A DNA stretch of 64,000 bases from Candidatus Bathyarchaeia archaeon (GCA_050013255.1 JBEKFP010000001.1:1248001-1312000); one strand, 5' to 3'. Shown: positions 48,460 to 58,724, counted from the first letter of the stretch. Notes: generated from the sequence alone by a model not told the origin. A program made the numbers and translations.

Positions 48460-48900
48460 TCAATCCCCGCGTCGCGATCGTGAAACGGCGACCGCAGGTG
48501 TCAGGACTTGAACGCCCAGGCGCAAGAGTTCCCTGGATTTGAAATGTTTCTTGTTGTAGGTGATGATTGTTGACGGCGACCTCGCTAGGGCTAACGCTGC
48601 AAACGGCGCATCTGTCTCATCCCGCACTAATTTCAGCGCTCCTTTGAGGCTGCTATTGTAGCCCGAAAGTGGGACGAATTCAACGTTCTCCAAGAGACGG
48701 TCCAAAGCTTCTTCAAGCTGCTGGTGCGTAAGACCTGCCTTGGCAGATATTTCTTTGCTATGAGCCCTGAGCTCTTCGGATAATTCAGCTGGAGCTACGA
48801 CTTCGCAATTGTCCGTATGGAGTAGAATCGCAAGGCTGGTTCTTGTGATTCCTTCCGTGCTTACCAGAGAAGACATCAAAACGTTGGTGTCGAGAATCAG
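48460..48900 (-). CDS. PIN-domain (VapC-like) toxin
   Basis: Frame extends upstream to ILDTNVL; D..D.PF.ALAL and T.N..HF; overlaps the antitoxin stop. Confidence 0.85.
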   Translation of the reverse strand: MILDTNVLMSSLVSTEGITRTSLAILLHTDNCEVVAPAELSEELRAHSKEISAKAGLTHQQLEEALDRLLENVEFVPLSGYNSSLKGALKLVRDETDAPFAALALARSPSTIITYNKKHFKSRELLRLGVQVLTPAVAVSRSRRGD

Positions 48901-49130
48901 TGTTTGTATGGGCTAAGCCTCTTCCAGGCCGCGATCTTGATTTCGCGGGAGAGCTTGTCAGCTTCTTTCTTGCTTAGTTTGGATGAGGACGCTAAGACCT
49001 CCAGCACAGCGAAACTTCTCAAGAGGGCGCCCATTTTCTCACGAGAGATGCCGCTGCGCTCTGCAAGTTCAAGAATCTCGGCTGGGATTTCCACGGGAAC
49101 GGTTTCCGTGACCATGGTTCCACACGACAT
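48897..49130 (-). CDS. Probable antitoxin partner of the PIN protein
   Basis: Small ORF overlapping the PIN start; SKLS..EA..L...IK...WKR pattern. Confidence 0.65.
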   Translation of the reverse strand: MSCGTMVTETVPVEIPAEILELAERSGISREKMGALLRSFAVLEVLASSSKLSKKEADKLSREIKIAAWKRLSPYKH

Positions 49131-49303
49131 TGCATATCTTGACCATTTGAAAAAGGTTCCCAGGCGCCAGCTTCAATCACCCGACGCGACCCCGCTATTC
49201 ATTGCGTAGCCTGAGCCGTAGCTGGATCGAATCGGCCGGATTATCAGAGCATTTTCGATAATACTTCCTCGTACTCTTTCTCGAGTGTCTGTGCCGTGCG
49301 GTG

Positions 49304-49340
49304 GCGTGCGCGCACGCTTGGAGGGACCCCCCAGGGGGGT
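49304..49340. other. Palindrome pair (GCGTGCGCGCACGC; ACCCCCCAGGGGGGT), candidate cos/pac region
   Basis: Two perfect dyads about 600 bp upstream of terS; function inferred. Confidence 0.4.
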
Positions 49341-49536
49341 GGTGCATCTTCTGGGGTCAGGAGGGGTTGATTTTGCGGTTTCCCTGGGACGTGAGTAATA
49401 TGGGGCTGAGCGGACGGATGGATTCTCGAGGTGTGGCGCACGCGAATTGCCTGGTCCCGTTTTGAGGTGGGTGAGTGTTTCAGCTACCTCCCTACCCGTA
49501 CGCGTGGCGGCAAACGTCAATTCTCCTTGACGAGGC

Positions 49537-49920
49537 ATGCGACGCGGGTGTGTGAAGGAATCGGCCGAGCAAACGAGCGACGAGGCTACGACGGGGAAGG
49601 CGAAGCTGAGGATTGGGTTGTCTGCCGATGAGCATGCTGAACTGCGGAGAGCGGCCAGCGAAAGCGAGTTCCCGAACATGGCGCTTCTTGTTTTTCAGGC
49701 AATTCACGCGGGGCTTGAGGGTGACGAGGTCGTCGGTGTGCAGAGGAAGCACACGAAGAGCGTTACCATCCACATTTCTAGAGAGTTCAAGCAGAAAATT
49801 CGGGCGAGAGCACGCATGTACCGGGTGACCCAGCAAGCACTCCTCCACAGCCTACTCTTCCAATACATACGCAACAGACCATGGCTGAGGACGCAAGCAG
49901 AGAAGACGGAGGTGGCCTGA
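49537..49920 (+). CDS. Putative ribbon-helix-helix-like DNA-binding protein
   Basis: Two beta-helix-helix-like units (LRIGLS.DEH..L; SVTIHIS.EF..KI...A); abuts terS. Confidence 0.5.
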   Translation: MRRGCVKESAEQTSDEATTGKAKLRIGLSADEHAELRRAASESEFPNMALLVFQAIHAGLEGDEVVGVQRKHTKSVTIHISREFKQKIRARARMYRVTQQALLHSLLFQYIRNRPWLRTQAEKTEVA

Positions 49921-49922
49921 AA

Positions 49923-50327
49923 ATGAAGAGCGAGACAGAACGAGACGGCAAGCCAACGGTCCACAAGGTGCCACTGATCACCGAGAAGGACGCGAAGGAG
50001 TACGAAGCCGTTAAGGCTGGCTTAATCGGCGAGTTGAAGAAACTGGGAAGCTACGAACCGGAAGTAGACGACCTACAAATCGACGCCATCGCCCGAGCCA
50101 CAATATACATGAAAAACCTGGAAAAACTCCTCGACTCTGAAAAGGCGAATCCTGAAACCTACAGCCGCGTCACAGACGCCCAAGCCAAACTGAGAAAGAT
50201 CATAGAAGGCGCCTTCCATGAACTCGCCGTCACACGCAGAGAAAGAATCGCGAACCAGGCCGGCAAAGCCGGGGAAGAGGAGTTGGCGAAGCTTATCCTA
50301 GAGGCGCTGAAAAATAAGCCAAAGTGA
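49923..50327 (+). CDS. terS: Terminase small subunit (P27-like)
   Basis: Immediately upstream of TerL; L..LG.Y....D and ELAVTRRER resemble the P27-type TerS pattern. Confidence 0.6.
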   Translation: MKSETERDGKPTVHKVPLITEKDAKEYEAVKAGLIGELKKLGSYEPEVDDLQIDAIARATIYMKNLEKLLDSEKANPETYSRVTDAQAKLRKIIEGAFHELAVTRRERIANQAGKAGEEELAKLILEALKNKPK

Positions 50328-50352
50328 GCCCTTAAAAAAATATGCGCAATAC

Positions 50353-51642
50353 GTGGCGGAGTCGCTCAGAGACCCAGTCAATTTCGCACGCAACTTCCTA
50401 AACTTCGAACCCTTCCCATACCAGGAAGAATTTCTACGCGACGAGTCCCACCTCATCGCTGCCTGCTGCGGCCGACAAGTCGGCAAAACCACCCTAGCCG
50501 CAATCAAAGCCCTACACTACACCCTAGCCAACAACCCGGTTCGCACCCTAATCATCAGCGCCGGCCTAAGACAGAGCATGATACTCTTCGACAAAATCCT
50601 TGAGAAGACCGAGGCCGCTGTCCCAGCCAAGGTTCTAACGAGCTACAAATCCAGAACCAAGATTCGTTTCGCGAATGGGTCAGAGATTGTGGCCCTACCC
50701 TGCGGAAGGGACGGTTCAACGTTGCGGGGATTTACCGCGGATATGGTCATTCTTGACGAAGCGAATTTCATACCGAGAATTGTCATCGACTCCGTCATTA
50801 GGCCCACAATGATAACGCGCCCTAATTCGAGGTTGATTATGATTTCGACGCCTTGGGTGCGGGACCACCCGTTCTATGAAGCCATCAGCAAACCCGAGCT
50901 AGGCTTCAAAACGTACACTTGGCCCTCATCGATTAGCCCGCTAATTACGCCTGAGAAGCTTGAGGTGGAAAGGAACACGATTGGAGAATATGACTTCAAC
51001 CGTGAGTACAACGCCGCCTTCATTGACGACGAGTTCAGCTACCTACCTAGCAAATTAGTGCTAAGCTGTACCGACAGCTATGAGCTGAACGGAGAGCCAG
51101 GACCCGGGGAGAGGTACAAAGGCGAATACCTCATCGGAATAGATTTCGGAAAACACACCGACCACTCCGCAATCGCCGTCTTAGAGAAGGCTGGCGATGA
51201 TCTTCGCCTCGTCTACCTGAAGGAACTGCCGCTGGAGACCTCCTACACGGCGGTGATAGGCAGTGTGAGGAGGTTGAACGAGGCGTACGCCTTTGCGGCG
51301 GGATGCCTCGACAAGACGGGAGTGGGTGAAGGGCCCTACGAAGAGATCAAACAATTCATGCGAGGAATGGAAGGAGTCACCCTAACCGCACAAATGAAGG
51401 AAGACCTCATGGGCAAACTGAAACTCGCCTTAGAAAAAGGCAAACTCACCCTCCCAAGAGACAACCCACAACTCCTAGTCCAGATGACGGCGCAACAATG
51501 CGAAGCCACTAAGTCCGGGACGCTGAGGTTCAGCCACCCAGCCGGCACGCATGACGATCAATTGTGGAGCCTTGCATTAGCCATCTACGCATCACAACAG
51601 CAGACTCGACCGAACTTTAAGCCAATTACTCGATCTTTCTGA
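50353..51642 (+). CDS. terL: Terminase large subunit
   Basis: PYQ, Walker A GRQVGKT, Walker B ILDEA, STP, nuclease GIDFG..D and HDD. Confidence 0.92.
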   Translation: MAESLRDPVNFARNFLNFEPFPYQEEFLRDESHLIAACCGRQVGKTTLAAIKALHYTLANNPVRTLIISAGLRQSMILFDKILEKTEAAVPAKVLTSYKSRTKIRFANGSEIVALPCGRDGSTLRGFTADMVILDEANFIPRIVIDSVIRPTMITRPNSRLIMISTPWVRDHPFYEAISKPELGFKTYTWPSSISPLITPEKLEVERNTIGEYDFNREYNAAFIDDEFSYLPSKLVLSCTDSYELNGEPGPGERYKGEYLIGIDFGKHTDHSAIAVLEKAGDDLRLVYLKELPLETSYTAVIGSVRRLNEAYAFAAGCLDKTGVGEGPYEEIKQFMRGMEGVTLTAQMKEDLMGKLKLALEKGKLTLPRDNPQLLVQMTAQQCEATKSGTLRFSHPAGTHDDQLWSLALAIYASQQQTRPNFKPITRSF

Positions 51643-52072: not shown

Positions 52073-52648
52073 TTAGTACTGAAAGCCTTTGACGGCTTTC
52101 TGCACACCGTGGTATTGACGAACCATGTCTGTCAATTCTACTAATAGGTCAACAACTATCTCGTCTTCAAGTTCAGCCAGTGTCTTGATTGCCTTGCGCT
52201 GGTAGTTCCCTCTTATGAGAGTTTTCGGCTTAACGTCCTTCATGAGAAAGGCGTACACCTTGTTTGAAGAACCTTTTAGTTCCTTCAGGGTGTGTGATGG
52301 ACGGGCATAGTACACGAGTGTAGTCATGCCACGTTTGATGGCGTCCAAGAACTCTAGCTTAGTCCGTTCAGAGTACTCTTTGCCGAACAGTCCGACATAC
52401 ATCTGACTCTTGTTCATCCCATCTGTCATTTTCTTTTCGATATCGCCTCCTCGACCATACTCGACGACCTCGGCGAAAAATAGCGGCTGGTAGTACGGCT
52501 CATCTGCTGCGCCCTTTTCATGCTCTCCGACTTTGCTATAGTTGACCACCTGCACCGAGTCAAGTGTTCTTTTGAGTTGCGCACGAAAATCTGAGAACTC
52601 GTCTTCGTGGGAGCTGATGAAGACGTGAATCGGTTCAGGAGGATTCAG
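52073..52648 (-). CDS. DUF4062 (TIR/NDT-like fold) protein
   Basis: Frame extends to CTG 52648, giving VFISS..EF...R; S.MYVGLFG.EYS..T..EF..A. Confidence 0.75.
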   Translation of the reverse strand: MNPPEPIHVFISSHEDEFSDFRAQLKRTLDSVQVVNYSKVGEHEKGAADEPYYQPLFFAEVVEYGRGGDIEKKMTDGMNKSQMYVGLFGKEYSERTKLEFLDAIKRGMTTLVYYARPSHTLKELKGSSNKVYAFLMKDVKPKTLIRGNYQRKAIKTLAELEDEIVVDLLVELTDMVRQYHGVQKAVKGFQY

Positions 52649-52670
52649 ATGTCCTCAGCCCGTCAGACGC

Positions 52671-52958
52671 TTAGCGCTTCTTCATCTTTTTAGGGCGCTT
52701 GGCTTTCTTGCGAAGCTTGTCCATCAGGACGCCTACATGATTGGGCGATATCCCTAGGATTCGGGCTATCTCTACATTGCGCAGAAGTGGTTCTTGTTGC
52801 TGGTCGTCCTCAGTGCCCGCAGAGCTTAGAAGTTCAACTCGCTGCAACAGAGTCAGTTTCCTGTCGTCGCTTGTGGGCAAAGAAAGAATCACACTTAGAA
52901 GGATATCTAGTCTCTTTACGACGTCTTCGAAATCAAATGACGCTTTCTTTGTAGCCAT
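52671..52958 (-). CDS. Small HTH protein, class B
   Basis: VVKRLDILL...QRVELLSSAG...EIARILGISPNHV. Confidence 0.75.
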   Translation of the reverse strand: MATKKASFDFEDVVKRLDILLSVILSLPTSDDRKLTLLQRVELLSSAGTEDDQQQEPLLRNVEIARILGISPNHVGVLMDKLRKKAKRPKKMKKR

Positions 52959-53042
52959 TGCAAACCCTTTTGAAATTAAATACACCAAGATGCTTTTAGG
53001 TTCTTGTATGTTTGTGCCAACAATTAGAAAGGAGGTGCTCAT

Positions 53043-53201
53043 ACGAAATCGAGCGAACTGAGGCAACTGACGACCGAATTGCGAGACGTGAAGAAACTAC
53101 TTGTCCTGATTGCCGTCAAGAACAAAGCCAGTCAAACGGAAGTCGGCAAACTTCTAGGGATTACAGATCGGCAAGTACGCAATCTGCTGGTCGGAAAATG
53201 A
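53043..53201 (+). CDS. Small HTH protein, class C, not in the ORF track
   Basis: Hand translation ..ELRDVKKLLVLIAVKNKASQTEVGKLLGITDRQVRNLL; GGAGGTG upstream; start codon uncertain. Confidence 0.65.
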   Translation, partial: TKSSELRQLTTELRDVKKLLVLIAVKNKASQTEVGKLLGITDRQVRNLLVGK

Positions 53202-53252
53202 CTTAGTCTTAATAGCAACACGAAGTCATCTTACTCCATTCAGTGAGGTGCT

Positions 53253-53351
53253 ATCCTGATTGCCTCTAAATCGGGTGCAACACAACCCGAAATTGGAAGG
53301 GCACTTGGTGTTAGTGACCATCAGGTTAGAAGAATCCTAGAGGGAGAATAG
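53253..53351 (+). pseudogene. 5'-truncated class C HTH paralog
   Basis: ILIASKSGATQPEIGRALGVSDHQVRRIL aligns without gaps to the preceding ORF; in-frame stop just upstream. Confidence 0.65.
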
Positions 53352-53389
53352 GTGACGGGAATCGTCAGCGAGGAATCAAGGGTGAAAAA

Positions 53390-53758
53390 GTGACAGGCCC
53401 ACTAGAGAAGGATGTAAGGGAGATAAGATGGCGAGTCGAGGGAGTTGAGAAATCAGTAGACCTTCTCGTTAGAGCCAATCGGCCAGAAATCATCGCAGAC
53501 CTGATGAAATTCTTCGGATGGTCAAAAGAAAGGGTGAAGGTGTTTTTGGCGGTGGATGGTGTGAAAACGGTAGAGGCAATCAAGAATGCCCTGAAAATGA
53601 AAAAGTCGCACGTCTCAGCTAGAATAACCGAACTCAAAGATGAGGGGCTGATCGAGCTGAAGAGGATCACACCAGAAGGCTACTACATATACACAAAGAC
53701 AGAGAAGGTCAAAATCCTAAACCTTGAACGCAAGCTCAGAAAGCAATTCCACCTCTAA
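53390..53758 (+). CDS. Winged-HTH protein, class A
   Basis: N-terminal amphipathic helix, then VFLAVDG.KT...I...L.M.KSHVS..I.EL..EGLI. Confidence 0.8.
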   Translation: MTGPLEKDVREIRWRVEGVEKSVDLLVRANRPEIIADLMKFFGWSKERVKVFLAVDGVKTVEAIKNALKMKKSHVSARITELKDEGLIELKRITPEGYYIYTKTEKVKILNLERKLRKQFHL

Positions 53759-53769
53759 CGGCACAAACA

Positions 53770-54525
53770 ATGTCTAGACTCTCAAACTCCGAAGCACGGG
53801 CTCAACTCCAATCTGATATTCTAAACATCTTTCACAGTAATGATTGGAAAGACACGGACGATTTCTCAGTCAAGCTAACAGCCAAGATCATGTCTGAAAA
53901 GGCTACTTCAAAACACGATATCAGAAGGTCGATTGATTCCATCCGAACTACATTCTTTCGAGCCAATGCAATCTCAAAGGAGAAAGTGTTGCGAACGCTC
54001 TTCGAGACTTTGAGCGAGAGTCTTCCATCCTACGTCTACAATGCGTCTGACAGACTCATGGTGAGCGACCTCTTCCCCGAGATCAGGAAAATATCGGATG
54101 AGGTAGCTGAGGGACGCCTAAGCAGCTTCCAGAAGGACGAAAGAACCCTTCAGGACAATCTGCGCCACGTCTTTAGGAGTAAACATGCGAGTATCCCTAG
54201 GAGAACCCATGATTCTTCTAAAGAGGTCGCAGACCTTGAGAAATTCGTTCTGAACCTCAACGGGAGGAACCTAAGTTTCGCCGTCGTTGTGAAGGGATAC
54301 AAGAGCATCAAGAAGCCAAAGCTGACTTGGGAGGATCTTGCTCATCAGATTACTAAGGCAAGGCGAGCCAATCCAGACCACATTCTTGTCATGAGCGCCA
54401 AGGAGCCTGTTGATGAACTCATCACGAGCATTGAGGAATATAACGAGGACATTTCTCGTCCAGGTTGCGTGATCTTCATTCCACCTCTCGACATGACTCG
54501 TATCTTTGTTGCGAATGGGTTTTGA
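53770..54525 (+). CDS. Putative PD-(D/E)XK-like (restriction-type) nuclease
   Basis: E...Q, E.ADL, F.VVVKG, HQI.KA arrangement; fold call inferred. Confidence 0.5.
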   Translation: MSRLSNSEARAQLQSDILNIFHSNDWKDTDDFSVKLTAKIMSEKATSKHDIRRSIDSIRTTFFRANAISKEKVLRTLFETLSESLPSYVYNASDRLMVSDLFPEIRKISDEVAEGRLSSFQKDERTLQDNLRHVFRSKHASIPRRTHDSSKEVADLEKFVLNLNGRNLSFAVVVKGYKSIKKPKLTWEDLAHQITKARRANPDHILVMSAKEPVDELITSIEEYNEDISRPGCVIFIPPLDMTRIFVANGF

Positions 54526-54671
54526 GCGGGGTGCGGCTAAGCGTCTACGATTAGAGCCTAGTGTTAGTGTGTGAGATTGGGGCTCAGCACGGTTCGCTTC
54601 TGCTAACGCCATGTATTGTTATATACACAGTTCAGTCTTATGACATCAGAGACGTCGGAGGTGTGAAAGTC

Positions 54672-54854
54672 ATGCCAGATAAGGAATCAGAAGAACTACA
54701 GAGTATTCGAAATCTGTTGATGTTATTGCTATTCAAGATGGGGGCAACTGACGACGAGGTCGCTATTGCTCTGAATGTGACGCAGGGGCGTGTGAGCCAA
54801 ATGATGCCAGCGAGGGGAATAAAGCCCGCGCACGTTGAATGCACCACGAAATAA
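54672..54854 (+). CDS. Small HTH protein, class C
   Basis: EELQSIRNLLMLLLFKMGATDDEVAIALNVTQGRVSQM; GGAGGTG RBS. Confidence 0.75.
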   Translation: MPDKESEELQSIRNLLMLLLFKMGATDDEVAIALNVTQGRVSQMMPARGIKPAHVECTTK

Positions 54855-55037
54855 CCGAACGACACGCTGTTCTGAAAAAGAGAGTTATTGCGAAGATCTC
54901 CGACATGGAGCTTTTGCGTCTGCGGGACAACCCTCCGAAGCCTCGCCCCTGTTGCTCAATGGGTAGTGGAATCGTCTACACAATATTGCTTGAGAGAAAC
55001 ACGGCTGGGCAACCAGGTTAGAGAGGGGGAAAGGTCA

Positions 55038-55328
55038 ATTTCTAACAGTGAACGAAATCATATTCAGAGGCTAGATGCTATCATTCAAAGATTGGATGTT
55101 TTGATTAGCCTGTCGATTCCGCCCCCGCAACCAACAGTCAAGCTTGGCAAGGTCGAACAAGCAGTGTACAGCCTGTGCGACATGCAACATGCTAGGAGAG
55201 ACATGGCCATGACCTTGAACAAAACTGTAAACCTCATAGATGTGACGCTCAATAGCTTAAGGAGAAAGGGCTTGGTCAAGCCGGTTGAAATTGGAGACCG
55301 GACATGCTACGTCCGCTTGAAAGGATAA
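55038..55328 (+). CDS. Winged-HTH protein, class A
   Basis: IIQRLDVLISL...VYSLCD....DMA..LNK....I...L..L..KGLV; start uncertain. Confidence 0.7.
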   Translation: MSNSERNHIQRLDAIIQRLDVLISLSIPPPQPTVKLGKVEQAVYSLCDMQHARRDMAMTLNKTVNLIDVTLNSLRRKGLVKPVEIGDRTCYVRLKG

Positions 55329-55352
55329 AATCGTGGAAGCTAGGTACAACAA

Positions 55353-55826
55353 TTGACTGATGGTCTGGTCGATATCGCAAAGATGGTGGGGACGATCTCG
55401 GTCGCAATTATGTCAATTTCAGTAGTCACCTATGCCCTTGCTGTTCCCAGATTGCAGACTGCACTCTCACTCAGCCTAAAGACGATTCAAGGGAGCAAAG
55501 CAGAGCTTGAAAAGAGAATACAGGAAGAGAGCCTTGCTCTCACAGAAATTGAGGGTCAGCTGAAGAACATCGCGGACGAACAGAAAGAAATGAATAAAGT
55601 CGTCACAAGGCTCAGCTGGAGCAGGGTTGTGTTCGTGCCAGTGATTATGGCTTTTCTCGCAATCGGGGTTACTGCCATATTGTTGGAATATCCTGACCTG
55701 TACCCATTACCACTTCTTCTTGTGTCGATAGCCCTTGTGCTGGGGACTTTTACACATTTACTGGGCAGCCTTCGGCTGATAGAACAGACAACGGTTAGAC
55801 CTGAAATAAGCGTTGGAGGAGGTTGA
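55353..55826 (+). CDS. Three-TM protein with coiled-coil loop
   Basis: TM, charged heptad region, two further TMs. Confidence 0.7.
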   Translation: MTDGLVDIAKMVGTISVAIMSISVVTYALAVPRLQTALSLSLKTIQGSKAELEKRIQEESLALTEIEGQLKNIADEQKEMNKVVTRLSWSRVVFVPVIMAFLAIGVTAILLEYPDLYPLPLLLVSIALVLGTFTHLLGSLRLIEQTTVRPEISVGGG

Positions 55827-55830
55827 AGTC

Positions 55831-56118
55831 ATGAGCGAAAGCCAGAAGGAACTTAGGGAAATCTCAACCAAGCTGGACATGATACTTGCACTAATGAGAG
55901 TTGCATTTCGTGACGCTATAGAAGCCGCAAAAGAAAAATCATTTGCTCGTTCTGACATAAAGAAGTCAATCTACGAACTGTGCGACGGCAAGAACACCGT
56001 TGATGACATGGCTAAGGAATTGAAGGTATCGTCAGCCTACGTGCGAGTCTATTTGGGAACGCTTGAAGAGGCGGGACTCGTCGTTAAAAAGGGGAGCATC
56101 TACGAGAAAGTTGTATAA
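55831..56118 (+). CDS. Winged-HTH protein, class A (ArsR-like)
   Basis: ELREISTKLDMILAL...IYELCDGKNT..DMAKEL.VS..YV...L..LEEAGLV. Confidence 0.82.
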   Translation: MSESQKELREISTKLDMILALMRVAFRDAIEAAKEKSFARSDIKKSIYELCDGKNTVDDMAKELKVSSAYVRVYLGTLEEAGLVVKKGSIYEKVV

Positions 56119-56186
56119 CCACTAGACCGTATGATCTTGTAATGTCTGATCAGCGGCAAACTGCGTTTCTATTATAAGGTGATTAA

Positions 56187-56405
56187 ATGTCGAATAATGA
56201 ACAAATCAACGAAAGCGAGATCGTAAAGAGACTTGATGCAATCATAGCATTGCTCGCACAAACCGGAGACAGAAAAATCGGTGAGAATATGGTAGTGCTC
56301 CGGAATGCTGGACTTAGACCGACCGAGATTAGTAAGATATTGGGCAAATCACTAAGTCACGTCACGAAAGAACTTGCACTCGCAAAGAAGATTGAAAAAA
56401 AGTGA
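56187..56405 (+). CDS. Small HTH protein, class B
   Basis: IVKRLDAIIALLA...LRNAGLRPTEISKILGKS. Confidence 0.8.
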   Translation: MSNNEQINESEIVKRLDAIIALLAQTGDRKIGENMVVLRNAGLRPTEISKILGKSLSHVTKELALAKKIEKK

Positions 56406-56459
56406 AACCGAAACGTCGAGATGTAGCTTCTGCACCAGGTTCTCTACGTCGGTGAAAGT

Positions 56460-56690
56460 ATGGACGCCAGACAATTTGCGGAACTCTCGAAGAAAATGGA
56501 CATTGTAATCAAGCTTCTGGCGTCGAACGTAGTTCAAGGCAAAAACCTCACACAACAAGCGGCAATGCTTTCCGCAATCGGCTTAGAGATAAAAGATATC
56601 GCTCTGATATTAGACAAAGATTCACATCTGATCAGTCAAACATTGTACCGGGTGAACAAGTCGAAAAGCGGTAAGGAGGAGACGAAGTGA
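56460..56690 (+). CDS. Small HTH protein, class B
   Basis: LSKKMDIVIKLLA...QQAAMLSAIGLEIKDIALILD. Confidence 0.8.
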   Translation: MDARQFAELSKKMDIVIKLLASNVVQGKNLTQQAAMLSAIGLEIKDIALILDKDSHLISQTLYRVNKSKSGKEETK

Positions 56691-56953
56691 GCGATCAGGA
56701 GACGAAGCTCGATAGATTGATTGAACTAGTTGAGGCGCTTCTTCGCACGAGGATTTCTGAACTGCTTGATAAGGAACTTGATGACCCGAAGAAGAGGAAG
56801 TTGTATGAACTCACAGGCAAGAAGAGCGTACGCGAACTCAGCGATTTAACTGAACTATCAACAGGTGCAATATCAAAAATCTGGCAAGGATGGCATTCTA
56901 AAGGTATTCTGAGGAAGCAAGGTATGTACTACGTCAAATTACTTGAAGAGTAG
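56687..56953 (+). CDS. Winged-HTH protein, class A
   Basis: KLDRLIELV...LYELTG..SVRELS..T.LS.GAIS..W..W...GIL; GTGA overlap with the previous gene. Confidence 0.8.
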   Translation: MSDQETKLDRLIELVEALLRTRISELLDKELDDPKKRKLYELTGKKSVRELSDLTELSTGAISKIWQGWHSKGILRKQGMYYVKLLEE

Positions 56954-56960
56954 ACTAAGG

Positions 56961-57134
56961 ATGGCTGAAAGGGAATTGAAGGAATTGCAAGCCATCAAGA
57001 AACTTTTGGTGTTGCAACTATTGAATGAGGACATCAAGGCTGATGCCATTGCCGATCTCTTGGGAATGGATCGTGCCGATTTTAGTCGAATGTTTCCGGT
57101 CAGGAAATTGTTGAAACGAACGCAGCGCGAGTAG
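56961..57134 (+). CDS. Small HTH protein, class C
   Basis: ELQAIKKLLVLQLLNEDIKADAIADLLGMD. Confidence 0.75.
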   Translation: MAERELKELQAIKKLLVLQLLNEDIKADAIADLLGMDRADFSRMFPVRKLLKRTQRE

Positions 57135-57135
57135 C

Positions 57136-57933
57136 ATGGTTGATCTTCAAGAACTGATAATCCGAGGCAGAATTATGTTTGATGGTGCAAACAGACGGCT
57201 CGAAGTTTTCGAATTAGTAAATGGGCGATCAACAAAAGAGATAGTTAGAAAATCTGGTAGAAGTTTATCTGCGATTGATCAAGACATAGAAAAACTCAGG
57301 GATATGGAACTAATCCAAGAAAAGAAGGATGGTAAGGGAAATGTCATCAAGAAAGACGGAAGCATAGTGTACGAAAAGTCGCCATTGATTAGGCATATAC
57401 CCATTTCGTATTTCAGAGATGTGGCCGATACCAGCAAGCTCGTCAAAAAGACGAAGAAGGGGCGAACGAGGATTTCCAAACCTGCAAATATCCACGTGCC
57501 GTCGGAGAACGAAATTCTTGACATCTGCAAGGAAGGAGAAGACCAATTGTATGAATTCAAAGCCCCCGGTGTGAGCACGGATAAGATAACGAAGGAAATC
57601 GCTGGATTCTTACATACAAAAGGTGGAGGTATACTCCTCTATGGAGTTGAGGACGACGGGAGTATTATCGGAGCCGATATGAGGAGACAAGACTTCGACC
57701 AGAAAATACAGAATTCGGTCAGGAACACGATTTCCCCACCACCATCGATAGAAATCAAAGAGCGGGCAGTAATGGGTTCCGCTGTGCTGCTGGTAGTTGT
57801 TCCTCCTTGGGATAGAAAGGCAATTTATCAAAATACTCTAGATGGAAGGTACTACATACGACGTGGCACGAATATTTTTGCGCTAAAACCTGATGAAATA
57901 AAGAAGCTTTCTCAAGGAATTTTCGTTGTTTGA
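57136..57933 (+). CDS. wHTH fused to AlbA_2 (Schlafen-like) domain
   Basis: N-terminal class-A-like wHTH; GEDQLYEFK, EIAGF...GG.LLYGVEDDG.I.G, YYIRRG. Confidence 0.85.
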   Translation: MVDLQELIIRGRIMFDGANRRLEVFELVNGRSTKEIVRKSGRSLSAIDQDIEKLRDMELIQEKKDGKGNVIKKDGSIVYEKSPLIRHIPISYFRDVADTSKLVKKTKKGRTRISKPANIHVPSENEILDICKEGEDQLYEFKAPGVSTDKITKEIAGFLHTKGGGILLYGVEDDGSIIGADMRRQDFDQKIQNSVRNTISPPPSIEIKERAVMGSAVLLVVVPPWDRKAIYQNTLDGRYYIRRGTNIFALKPDEIKKLSQGIFVV

Positions 57934-58010
57934 TTTGGATGGAACCGATATGAACCATGTTGGTTAGGCAGGCTAGGCAAAAGCGAGTATCGGATCGATA
58001 ATTACTCATA

Positions 58011-58568
58011 GTGAGGAAGTTGTTGGAGGCAAGTCGGAGAAAAGGGCAATGCTTCTTCTGTGGAGAGAAGGCTACGCAAGCCATTGACCTTCATCACAGA
58101 ATCCCTCAGAGCATAACGAGAAGAATCCCGAAACTCGTTCGAACCGAAGTGCTCGACGAGATCTTCGGAAAGAACTCGCAGAGACTCTATTCGCTGTGCG
58201 GAAGTTGCCATAAGAAACTTCACTCTGTCTTGAGACCGTTTGAGAAAAGCATCCTGCTATTTTCTGACATAACTAATCCGGAAAAGGAAGTGGTCTATCA
58301 GAAAATGAAGGACAGAGCTCTCATGATCATCAGCGCAGACGGAAGAAAGGAAGATACGGCTAATGTTGAACGAGTGGTTGCGAAACTTGAGAAAAAAGGG
58401 CTCGATAGAGAAGAATCTATCCGATTGCTGAAGGATCTTAGGAATGACGGGCCCATCTACTTTGTGCTGGTTGACGAGCCGAGTGCAGGGCATGATCTGA
58501 GTTTCATAAACAAGATCACATACGACTATGAGAGTGTCATGAAGGCTAGAAAGAGGCTCAGAGCGTAA
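58011..58568 (+). CDS. HNH endonuclease with C-terminal wHTH-like domain
   Basis: CFFCG...HH.IP...LCGSCHKKLH. Confidence 0.75.
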   Translation: MRKLLEASRRKGQCFFCGEKATQAIDLHHRIPQSITRRIPKLVRTEVLDEIFGKNSQRLYSLCGSCHKKLHSVLRPFEKSILLFSDITNPEKEVVYQKMKDRALMIISADGRKEDTANVERVVAKLEKKGLDREESIRLLKDLRNDGPIYFVLVDEPSAGHDLSFINKITYDYESVMKARKRLRA

Positions 58569-58696
58569 ATGGGCGCAGATGAATAAGTATCCTACTGCTA
58601 ATTCGAATCTCTATTATTAAGTAGAAATCTGTTCCTACGTGAGTAGAACGAGTTCGAGTGACACAACGGTCAGAATGCTGATTAGTCCCACGACTT

Positions 58697-58724
58697 GTGG
58701 GTTCAAATCCCACCGGCGCCACCA
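58697..58724 (+). other. tRNA 3'-end fragment (T-arm, acceptor strand, ACCA), att-site-like
   Basis: GTGGG-TTCAAAT-CCCAC-CGGCGCC-A-CCA; no matching 5' half upstream. Confidence 0.75.

Follow-up and report, generated by a model that had tools for sequence, protein, structure and literature searches.

Gene content of the locus

The locus was analysed within a 64,000-nucleotide (nt) stretch of a Candidatus Bathyarchaeia archaeon genome (GCA_050013255.1 JBEKFP010000001.1:1248001-1312000; G000:C1:1248001-1312000), here called the window. Window positions 52073-58568, a 6.5-kb island, hold ten short open reading frames (ORFs) that code for an N-terminal helix and a helix-turn-helix (HTH), and one truncated copy, interspersed with larger genes for candidate defence effectors. 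The small ORFs fall into three classes: A with a wing (winged HTH, wHTH), B without, and C, the shortest. Their genes and the neighbouring effector genes were compared with 27 non-redundant related contexts, in which genes were labelled by class A, B and C hidden Markov models (HMMs) and by effector clusters; WIN denotes the window locus and L plus a number a related locus.

Class A comprises a 122-amino-acid (aa) helix+wHTH protein of the subfamily adjacent to the effector E3 (53390-53758, +), a protein of about 96 aa with an uncertain start (ATT 55038) that is the partner of a three-transmembrane (3-TM) gene (55038-55328, +), a 95-aa helix+wHTH protein (55831-56118, +; Pfam HTH_5, 28 bits) and an 88-aa protein (56687-56953, +) with 70% identity to L046_4 and 93% to L001_6. 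Class B consists of a 95-aa protein (52671-52958, -), assigned by HMM and BLAST and, from its position upstream of E2, taken as cognate partner of that effector, a 72-aa protein (56187-56405, +) and a 76-aa protein (56460-56690, +), whose stop overlaps the next start by 4 nt. Class C members are encoded at 53079-53201 (+; 40 aa from TTG), 54672-54854 (+; 60 aa) and 56961-57134 (+; 57 aa, 1 nt before the effector start). A second class C copy at 53247-53351 (+) has lost its N-terminus behind a stop codon; an intact 52-aa ortholog is present in G275 (L038). The first-pass annotation of this DNA had listed the copy as a fragment, correctly.

All-vs-all BLASTP in a 17-protein database gave E values of 1e-4 to 2e-7 within classes, and no cross-class or other pair scored better than E 0.01. 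A55831 was linked with 53390, 55038 and 56687 (E about 1e-6), B56187 with 52958(-) and 56460, and C54672 with 56961 and 53079. The same membership was reproduced by HMMs, whose matches in the host genome were confined to the island. Thus the roughly 11 helix+HTH ORFs and the three classes proposed earlier were both recovered. Mutual homology of the classes, also proposed, was borne out between A and B, which align across N-terminal helix and HTH (hhalign 96%, E 3e-9, with 36 and 33 sequences; 85% in an earlier alignment of 3-4 sequences) and have a (K/R)LD..I..L helix in common. For class C it extended to the HTH only (85% with B, 76% with A). A55831 is a member of a family of full-length proteins about 100 aa long. 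A55038 is 76% identical to its ortholog in L001, where a transmembrane gene is likewise next, and A53390 is 59% identical to L057_4 and 39-40% to L052_5 and L050_6. An ORF artefact or chance similarity was rejected, because each class has many full-length homologs elsewhere.

Effector genes

E2 (52073-52648, -) is a candidate TIR-like effector of DUF4062/NIR type, with the family N-terminus at CTG 52648. Its AlphaFold2 (AF2) model (pLDDT 82.7) was matched by Foldseek to TIR domains from plants and bacteria (RPS4, L6, ThsB and SPARTA) and to nucleoside deoxyribosyltransferases (top matches, probability 1.00), so that a TIR-like flavodoxin-type fold is predicted. DUF4062 (PF13271) remained below the cut-off: the best E2 homolog (L043) scored 20.6 bits vs 24.7, and precomputed homolog hits are rated weak. 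The window ORF of 160 aa from GTG 52555, which lacks the conserved N-terminal strand, had no Pfam match at E<=0.1, the extended ORF had no NCBIfam match, and a PDB sequence search with E2 returned nothing or noise. Across eight family sequences one Glu, in an (L/V)(I/V)E motif, is invariant, a possible counterpart of E98/E103 of Vulcan and VstA.

E3 (53770-54525, +; 251 aa) combines a helical N-domain with a C-domain of predicted restriction-endonuclease (REase) fold. In the AF2 model (pLDDT 85.6) the PD-(D/E)xK core appears as alpha-beta-beta-beta-alpha-beta, and the top Foldseek matches were EcoT38I, MspJI, AspBHI and BamHI (E 7.7e-4, probability 0.99, TM about 0.3 for the two-domain model). 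In the catalytic region K175 and the acidic residues of EVADLE are conserved, and the strand reads VVVKG, without an acidic residue. E3 had no Pfam or PADLOC match. In one family member elsewhere (L053:10234-10839) the helical N-domain is retained and an HNH-type motif stands where the others have the REase-like domain, a swap of effector domains within a single family.

The gene at 55353-55826 (+) encodes a 3-TM protein with a central coiled segment, a possible membrane effector. Hydropathy gave three hydrophobic segments (4-33, 86-112 and 115-140), and an ortholog is present in L001. At 57136-57933 (+), a 265-aa protein joins an N-terminal wHTH to a Schlafen/AlbA_2 nuclease domain. It scored 68.6 bits (8.7e-19) with Pfam SLFN_AlbA_2 against a cut-off of 25.3 and has an intact Ex4ExK motif, EDQLYEFK, at residues 135-142; with a domain above the Pfam cut-off and the Ex4(E/D)xK motif it belongs to the prokaryotic Schlafens (pSlfn). 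The 185-aa HNH-like protein at 58011-58568 (+) was assigned by motif only (CxxC at 14 and 63, HH at 28): Pfam, NCBIfam, PADLOC and PDB sequences gave no HNH match, and the CxxC...HH...CxxC pattern is all that is present. Its gene lies outside the homology with L041. Of the effector assignments made at first pass, AlbA_2 (by Pfam), the REase-like fold and the three hydrophobic segments therefore stand; HNH is limited to the motif, and DUF4062 to sub-threshold matches of homologs.

The genes are tightly spaced or overlapping, with gaps of -4 to 25 nt for B-E2, A-E3, A-TM and B-A-C-AlbA. For the ORF at 53043, classified as C from the outset, the class holds; no canonical start (53049-53079) precedes TTG 53079, the first ATG, GTG or TTG, which lies past the start of the family helix, so that helix coding extends upstream of it. 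A55038 has ATT at the family N-terminus, behind a GGGGGAAAGG run. In E2 the conserved first strand (IHVFISS) is upstream of the first canonical start, GTG 52555, whose use would remove strand 1, and CTG 52648 (52646-52648) occupies the position where homologs have TTG. The noncanonical starts of E2, C53079 and A55038 point either to the use of rare start codons or to decay. Within the left half, E2 looks decayed, as do C53079, the C fragment and perhaps A55038; the right-hand block is intact.

Conserved gene order in other genomes

Class B had 44 homologs in a large protein collection, labelled Bathyarchaeia, and was found in 41 of 401 genomes of the host's taxonomic class, in many cases as tandem pairs; in the rest of the phylum it is sporadic. 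An ESM Atlas look-up for class B returned unnamed bacterial clusters only. Class A was represented by 714 cluster representatives, most of them full-length at about 100 aa, in which Pfam recognises only a generic wHTH. The class A profile also matched three proteins of 580-890 aa (P0045, P0046, P0047) 8-12 times each, as tandem wHTH repeats.

The small genes keep fixed positions beside their effectors. Class B lies directly upstream of the E2 family in 8 of 8 loci, and some of these B-E2 units are inserted between housekeeping genes. One A subfamily lies directly upstream of E3 in WIN, L057, L052, L050, L073 and L038/L071; the L051 copy is a divergent relative. Directly ahead of wHTH-AlbA_2, A/B/C genes were present in all five loci examined (WIN, L041, L079, L080, L081), some of them from other archaeal phyla; L081 has B-B-A then AlbA_2, as in the window. 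The wHTH-AlbA_2 family itself numbers at least 424 proteins from Bathyarchaeia, Nitrososphaerota, Aenigmatarchaeota and Brockarchaeota. In the Nitrosotenuis-labelled L079 (4844-8801), an AbiV-type HEPN gene and a Metallophos and SMC pair resembling SbcCD come after the run A-A-A-A-B-A-AlbA_2.

Longer arrays are conserved as well. Ordered arrays of 7-8 genes are common to L050, L051, L053 and L059 at 50-85% identity. Three further units recur: A/B/C runs followed by a DUF2240-like N-domain fused to HEPN_Swt1 or a CAP12-type TIR; B-B or A-C ahead of E4, a protein of about 245 aa with no annotation; and A-A-B-A followed by a Ymh-HEPN protein beside a SIR2-TPR protein. Three distant class A members on metagenome contigs were found in A-B-A then wHTH-HEPN, in four A genes then E3, and in A-B then a nuclease-like protein. 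Among the effectors of related cassettes there are matches to PDC-M34B (3e-45), PDC-S35 (4e-47) and ThsB-like TIR. The expected linkage of the HTH genes to effectors in conserved order was thus found across many genomes, in the 27 loci and in the distant contexts.

Cassettes stand between housekeeping genes in L006, L009 and L072, and beside integrases, restriction-modification and STAND genes in L004 and L055. Class B had no relative in IMG/VR contigs, and tblastn of classes A and B against GenBank phage records gave none; few Bathyarchaeia viruses are deposited. The distribution is patchy and the cassettes are horizontally spread.

Effector exchange at a cassette junction

Window positions 55054-57152 (A, TM, A, B, B, A, C; 2.1 kb) are 90% DNA-identical to the metagenome contigs L001 and L003, up to a point 17 nt inside the effector ORF; both effectors start MVDLQE. 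Beyond this junction the window encodes wHTH-AlbA_2 and HNH, vs HEPN_Swt1 and TIR in L001/L003. C+AlbA_2 recurs in L041 behind a different upstream array. Effectors were thus exchanged by recombination at the cassette junction, and the swappable effector that had been proposed for this locus is seen directly behind a 90%-identical HTH block.

Two of these loci carry effector genes that look broken. In L003 (2498-4125) the HEPN gene is interrupted, with the N-domain alone (130 aa) and the HEPN C-part fused to the next TIR gene (374 aa), apparently through a deletion. In L041 (1850-2638) the AlbA_2 ortholog of G327, at 80% DNA identity, is open for just 152 codons, which may mean a frameshift, a pseudogene or an error of assembly.

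Paralogs within the array are 24-35% identical to each other, vs 59-93% for orthologs in other genomes. Because orthologs elsewhere are closer than in-array paralogs, the array was built from separate modules. Recent tandem duplication was rejected for the same reason, in line with the repeated acquisition first supposed.

Island setting and edges

The host genome is archaeal, 2.46 Mb in size with 50% GC, and the GC content falls to 0.43-0.48 over 52-59 kb of the window vs 0.50 genome-wide. On the right the island is bounded by a 48-nt transfer RNA (tRNA) 3' fragment (58677-58724, +) with T arm, acceptor and CCA, followed by an ABC-transporter operon. Same-genus copies of this operon, with up to 91% DNA identity, have neither array nor tRNA fragment alongside. 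The tRNA 3' end (T arm and acceptor) occurs at five places in the host genome (window 58677-58724, C1:124705, C3:122448, C3:134103 and C3:137329) and in many copies in genomes of the same genus; an integrase at C3:131514 (G000) has two of the copies nearby. ARAGORN detected no full tRNA at these sites, and Rfam and ARAGORN scans detected no RNA gene within the island. The tRNA 3' end looks like a favoured attachment site for integrative elements.

Left of the island, a terS/terL-like pair is encoded at 49881-51642 (Pfam Terminase_6N/6C), 29-34% identical to proteins of tailed archaeal and bacterial viruses. No integrase or attachment-site (att) pair was detected for this module, for which portal and capsid genes were not searched. 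A terL copy, 80% identical, lies at C1:398448-399741 of the same genome, with more in same-genus genomes. The window contains no integrase and no second copy of the tRNA fragment; with TerL present, no integrase and a single tRNA fragment, it does not qualify as an integrated provirus or integrative element. The island is strain-specific and low in GC. It is variable, probably acquired DNA, possibly in the remains of an integrated element.

At the left edge, a PIN_2-domain protein and a small Xre-like partner (48460-49130, -) look like a classical toxin-antitoxin (TA) pair. Immediately ahead of the terminase module lies a G/C-rich element of about 75 nt (49303-49381), which recurs, with 80-96% identity, at more than 10 sites in the host genome and in same-genus genomes. 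It had no Rfam match and could be a repeat resembling a miniature inverted-repeat transposable element, or a small RNA. Scans for sigma-70 promoters and terminators, models not applicable to archaea, showed no enrichment.

Comparison with known systems

PADLOC matched no window protein to a named or candidate system, beyond generic wHTH similarity to Csa3 and CasR. The locus had been put forward as an undescribed system: this agrees with the lack of a named-system match and is qualified by effectors from families known or catalogued in defence, namely prokaryotic Schlafen-HTH and DUF4062/NIR NADases, with PDC-M34B and PDC-S35 in relatives.

PDC-M34, a PADLOC computational candidate whose component B is a Swt1-like HEPN protein, resembles the locus as a small mobile cassette of partner and effector. 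The HEPN protein that replaces AlbA_2 in L001 matches M34B (3e-45), as do effectors of L053 and L072. No window protein matches the PDC-M34A or PDC-M34B profiles; the window has other effectors, and its partners are A/B/C mini-HTH arrays.

Type II TA modules, including the Panacea network of hyperpromiscuous antitoxins in which one partner family serves many toxins (PMC10440598), likewise place a small DNA-binding-type protein just upstream of a toxic-domain protein, pair one partner family with many unrelated effector domains and are mobile and patchy. As in such modules, the partner here is adjacent, co-directional and tightly spaced, with the order kept in other genomes. What sets the arrays apart is the number of HTH genes: as many as eight distinct ones, their order conserved, accompany an effector, and 2-8 precede it in most loci instead of one antitoxin per toxin. 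The effectors also have a wHTH or helical N-domain of their own.

Prokaryotic Schlafens, HTH fusions included, act in phage defence, with Ex4(E/D)xK defining the active ones and with nucleases fused to sensor domains (PMC13056530). The 57136-57933 protein has SLFN_AlbA_2, Ex4ExK and an HTH fusion in common with them; its gene differs in always standing behind A/B/C mini-HTH genes (5/5 loci). DUF4062/NIR proteins are NADase effectors of phage defence (preprints 10.64898/2026.09.04.749371; 10.64898/2026.05.01.722283; 10.64898/2026.06.25.731849), as in Swarozyc, Evangelion, Vulcan, Vesta and Avs2-NIR. The predicted TIR-like fold and the weak DUF4062 profile matches liken the E2 family to them, its invariant Glu may correspond in position, and, as in Vesta, E2 is a small protein in a two-gene operon. 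The partner of E2, in contrast, is a 72-98 aa class B HTH protein, where those systems have a phosphatase, HEAT repeats or an AUX region; Pfam scores do not reach the curated cut-off, and the window copy has no canonical start.

AbiE (AbiEi wHTH antitoxin with AbiEii) and defence-island regulators such as BrxR/CapW also use a wHTH protein from an upstream gene to repress and/or neutralise a defence effector. These are single regulators from protein families different from A, B and C, and no match to them was seen in PADLOC or Pfam searches.

Interpretation

The first-pass annotation had treated the stretch as one system. It is resolved here into several independent cassettes, and the best explanation is probably that of concatenated defence or addiction cassettes, with the mini-HTH proteins as cognate regulators or keepers of the effector. 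The evidence from gene order, effector swap and effector domains is direct; a regulatory or neutralising role of the mini-HTH proteins is inferred. At least four or five conflict cassettes would be joined end to end in the island. Each would consist of one to several tiny helix+HTH proteins of one superfamily, whose genes stand just ahead of, and are often translationally coupled to, the gene of an effector with a killer-type domain. A minus-strand cassette holds B and then the TIR-like, DUF4062-type putative NADase; a second C, the C remnant and A before the protein of predicted REase fold; a third A and the 3-TM protein; and a fourth A-B and B-A-C before the wHTH-Schlafen nuclease, with the HNH-like gene behind. 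The small proteins may be dimeric repressors that bind DNA, possibly also keepers in the manner of an antitoxin, and would keep the effector of their own cassette silenced. Once the cell is infected or the cassette lost, this control would be lifted, and the freed effector would arrest or kill the cell through NAD+ depletion, RNA or DNA cleavage, or membrane damage. The predicted outcome is abortive infection or addiction.

Several observations weigh against this explanation. No operator-like palindromes or inverted repeats were found in six intergenic regions. Left-half genes lack canonical starts or are truncated, and part of the locus may be inactive. The terS/terL genes and the tRNA fragment adjoin the island, so a role in a mobile element's own regulation is possible. 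Classical type II modules have one antitoxin; because conserved ordered arrays of 4-8 distinct HTH subfamilies stand before one effector, a simple TA pair is a poor fit. Single-gene Schlafen and DUF4062 systems defend without a partner (PMC13056530; 10.64898/2026.06.25.731849), and a keeper is therefore not obviously needed.

A bolder version, which we regard as rather doubtful, would make the mini-HTH arrays an obligatory, ordered multi-protein apparatus for DNA recognition or regulation, a new class of immune system across archaea. On sensing invading DNA or a shut-off of transcription, the apparatus would license the effector plugged in behind it, be it Schlafen, HEPN, TIR, DUF4062, REase-like or a membrane protein.

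Multi-gene ordered arrays are unlike a simple antitoxin and keep the multi-subunit idea alive. It was originally proposed that A, B and C assemble, by way of their N-terminal helices, into one hetero-oligomeric complex that binds DNA and, as sensor or regulator, controls the attached effector. The helix common to A and B, the retention of ordered arrays of distinct subfamilies across genera (L050, L051, L053, L059) and the B-B-A then AlbA_2 layout of the window and L081 are consistent with such a complex, to which the effectors could dock through their own N-terminal wHTH or helical domain. A given effector family, however, can have arrays of anything between 1 and 8 genes, and in the smallest modules (B then E2; A then E3 in the window) there is only one HTH gene. 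We consider this arrangement unlikely.

Purely selfish addiction by TA modules with no antiviral role, the arrays being partly orphan antitoxins kept as anti-addiction genes, would account for the patchy distribution (41/401 genomes), the insertion of small cassettes between housekeeping genes, the decayed copies in the island and the nearby classical TA pairs (PIN_2/Xre-like at 48460-49130; MazE/ParE in L001). The TIR-like, Schlafen, HEPN and SIR2 domains, however, are ones experimentally shown to act in phage defence, and the conserved order of array subfamilies argues against piles of orphans. This explanation, too, is improbable.

Archaeal mobile elements are rich in small wHTH proteins, and the small HTH genes might be ordinary regulators of a decayed integrated virus or plasmid, with the effectors as superinfection-exclusion cargo and no dedicated HTH-effector system. 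This is very unlikely: the terS/terL-like genes (49881-51642), the tRNA 3' fragment (58677-58724), the GC shift (0.43-0.48 vs 0.50) and integrases adjoining related arrays in L004 and L055 favour it, but the subfamily-effector pairing holds across phyla, and the window has no integrase. The same cassettes, moreover, occur between housekeeping genes (L006, L009, L072) with no viral genes beside them and were not found in viral collections (class B in IMG/VR; A and B in GenBank phages), which makes regulation of a mobile element alone the less likely role.

Significance

With concatenated regulator-effector cassettes as the preferred explanation, the cassette layout is recurrent across archaea and has no named-system match in the sources searched. 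The antiviral systems of Bathyarchaeia are little known, and this locus and its relatives form a recurrent, horizontally spread cassette architecture in which validated defence effector domains are joined to an uncharacterised family of tiny HTH proteins. The sharp swap junction lets the modularity of effectors be studied as a natural experiment. Should the arrays prove to be functional partners, they would explain how the effectors stay silent and get triggered. The A/B/C HMMs would then serve as markers for new effectors, with E3, E4 and the 3-TM protein as unannotated candidates, and a multi-regulator variant would be added to the repertoire of toxin-antitoxin and abortive-infection systems.

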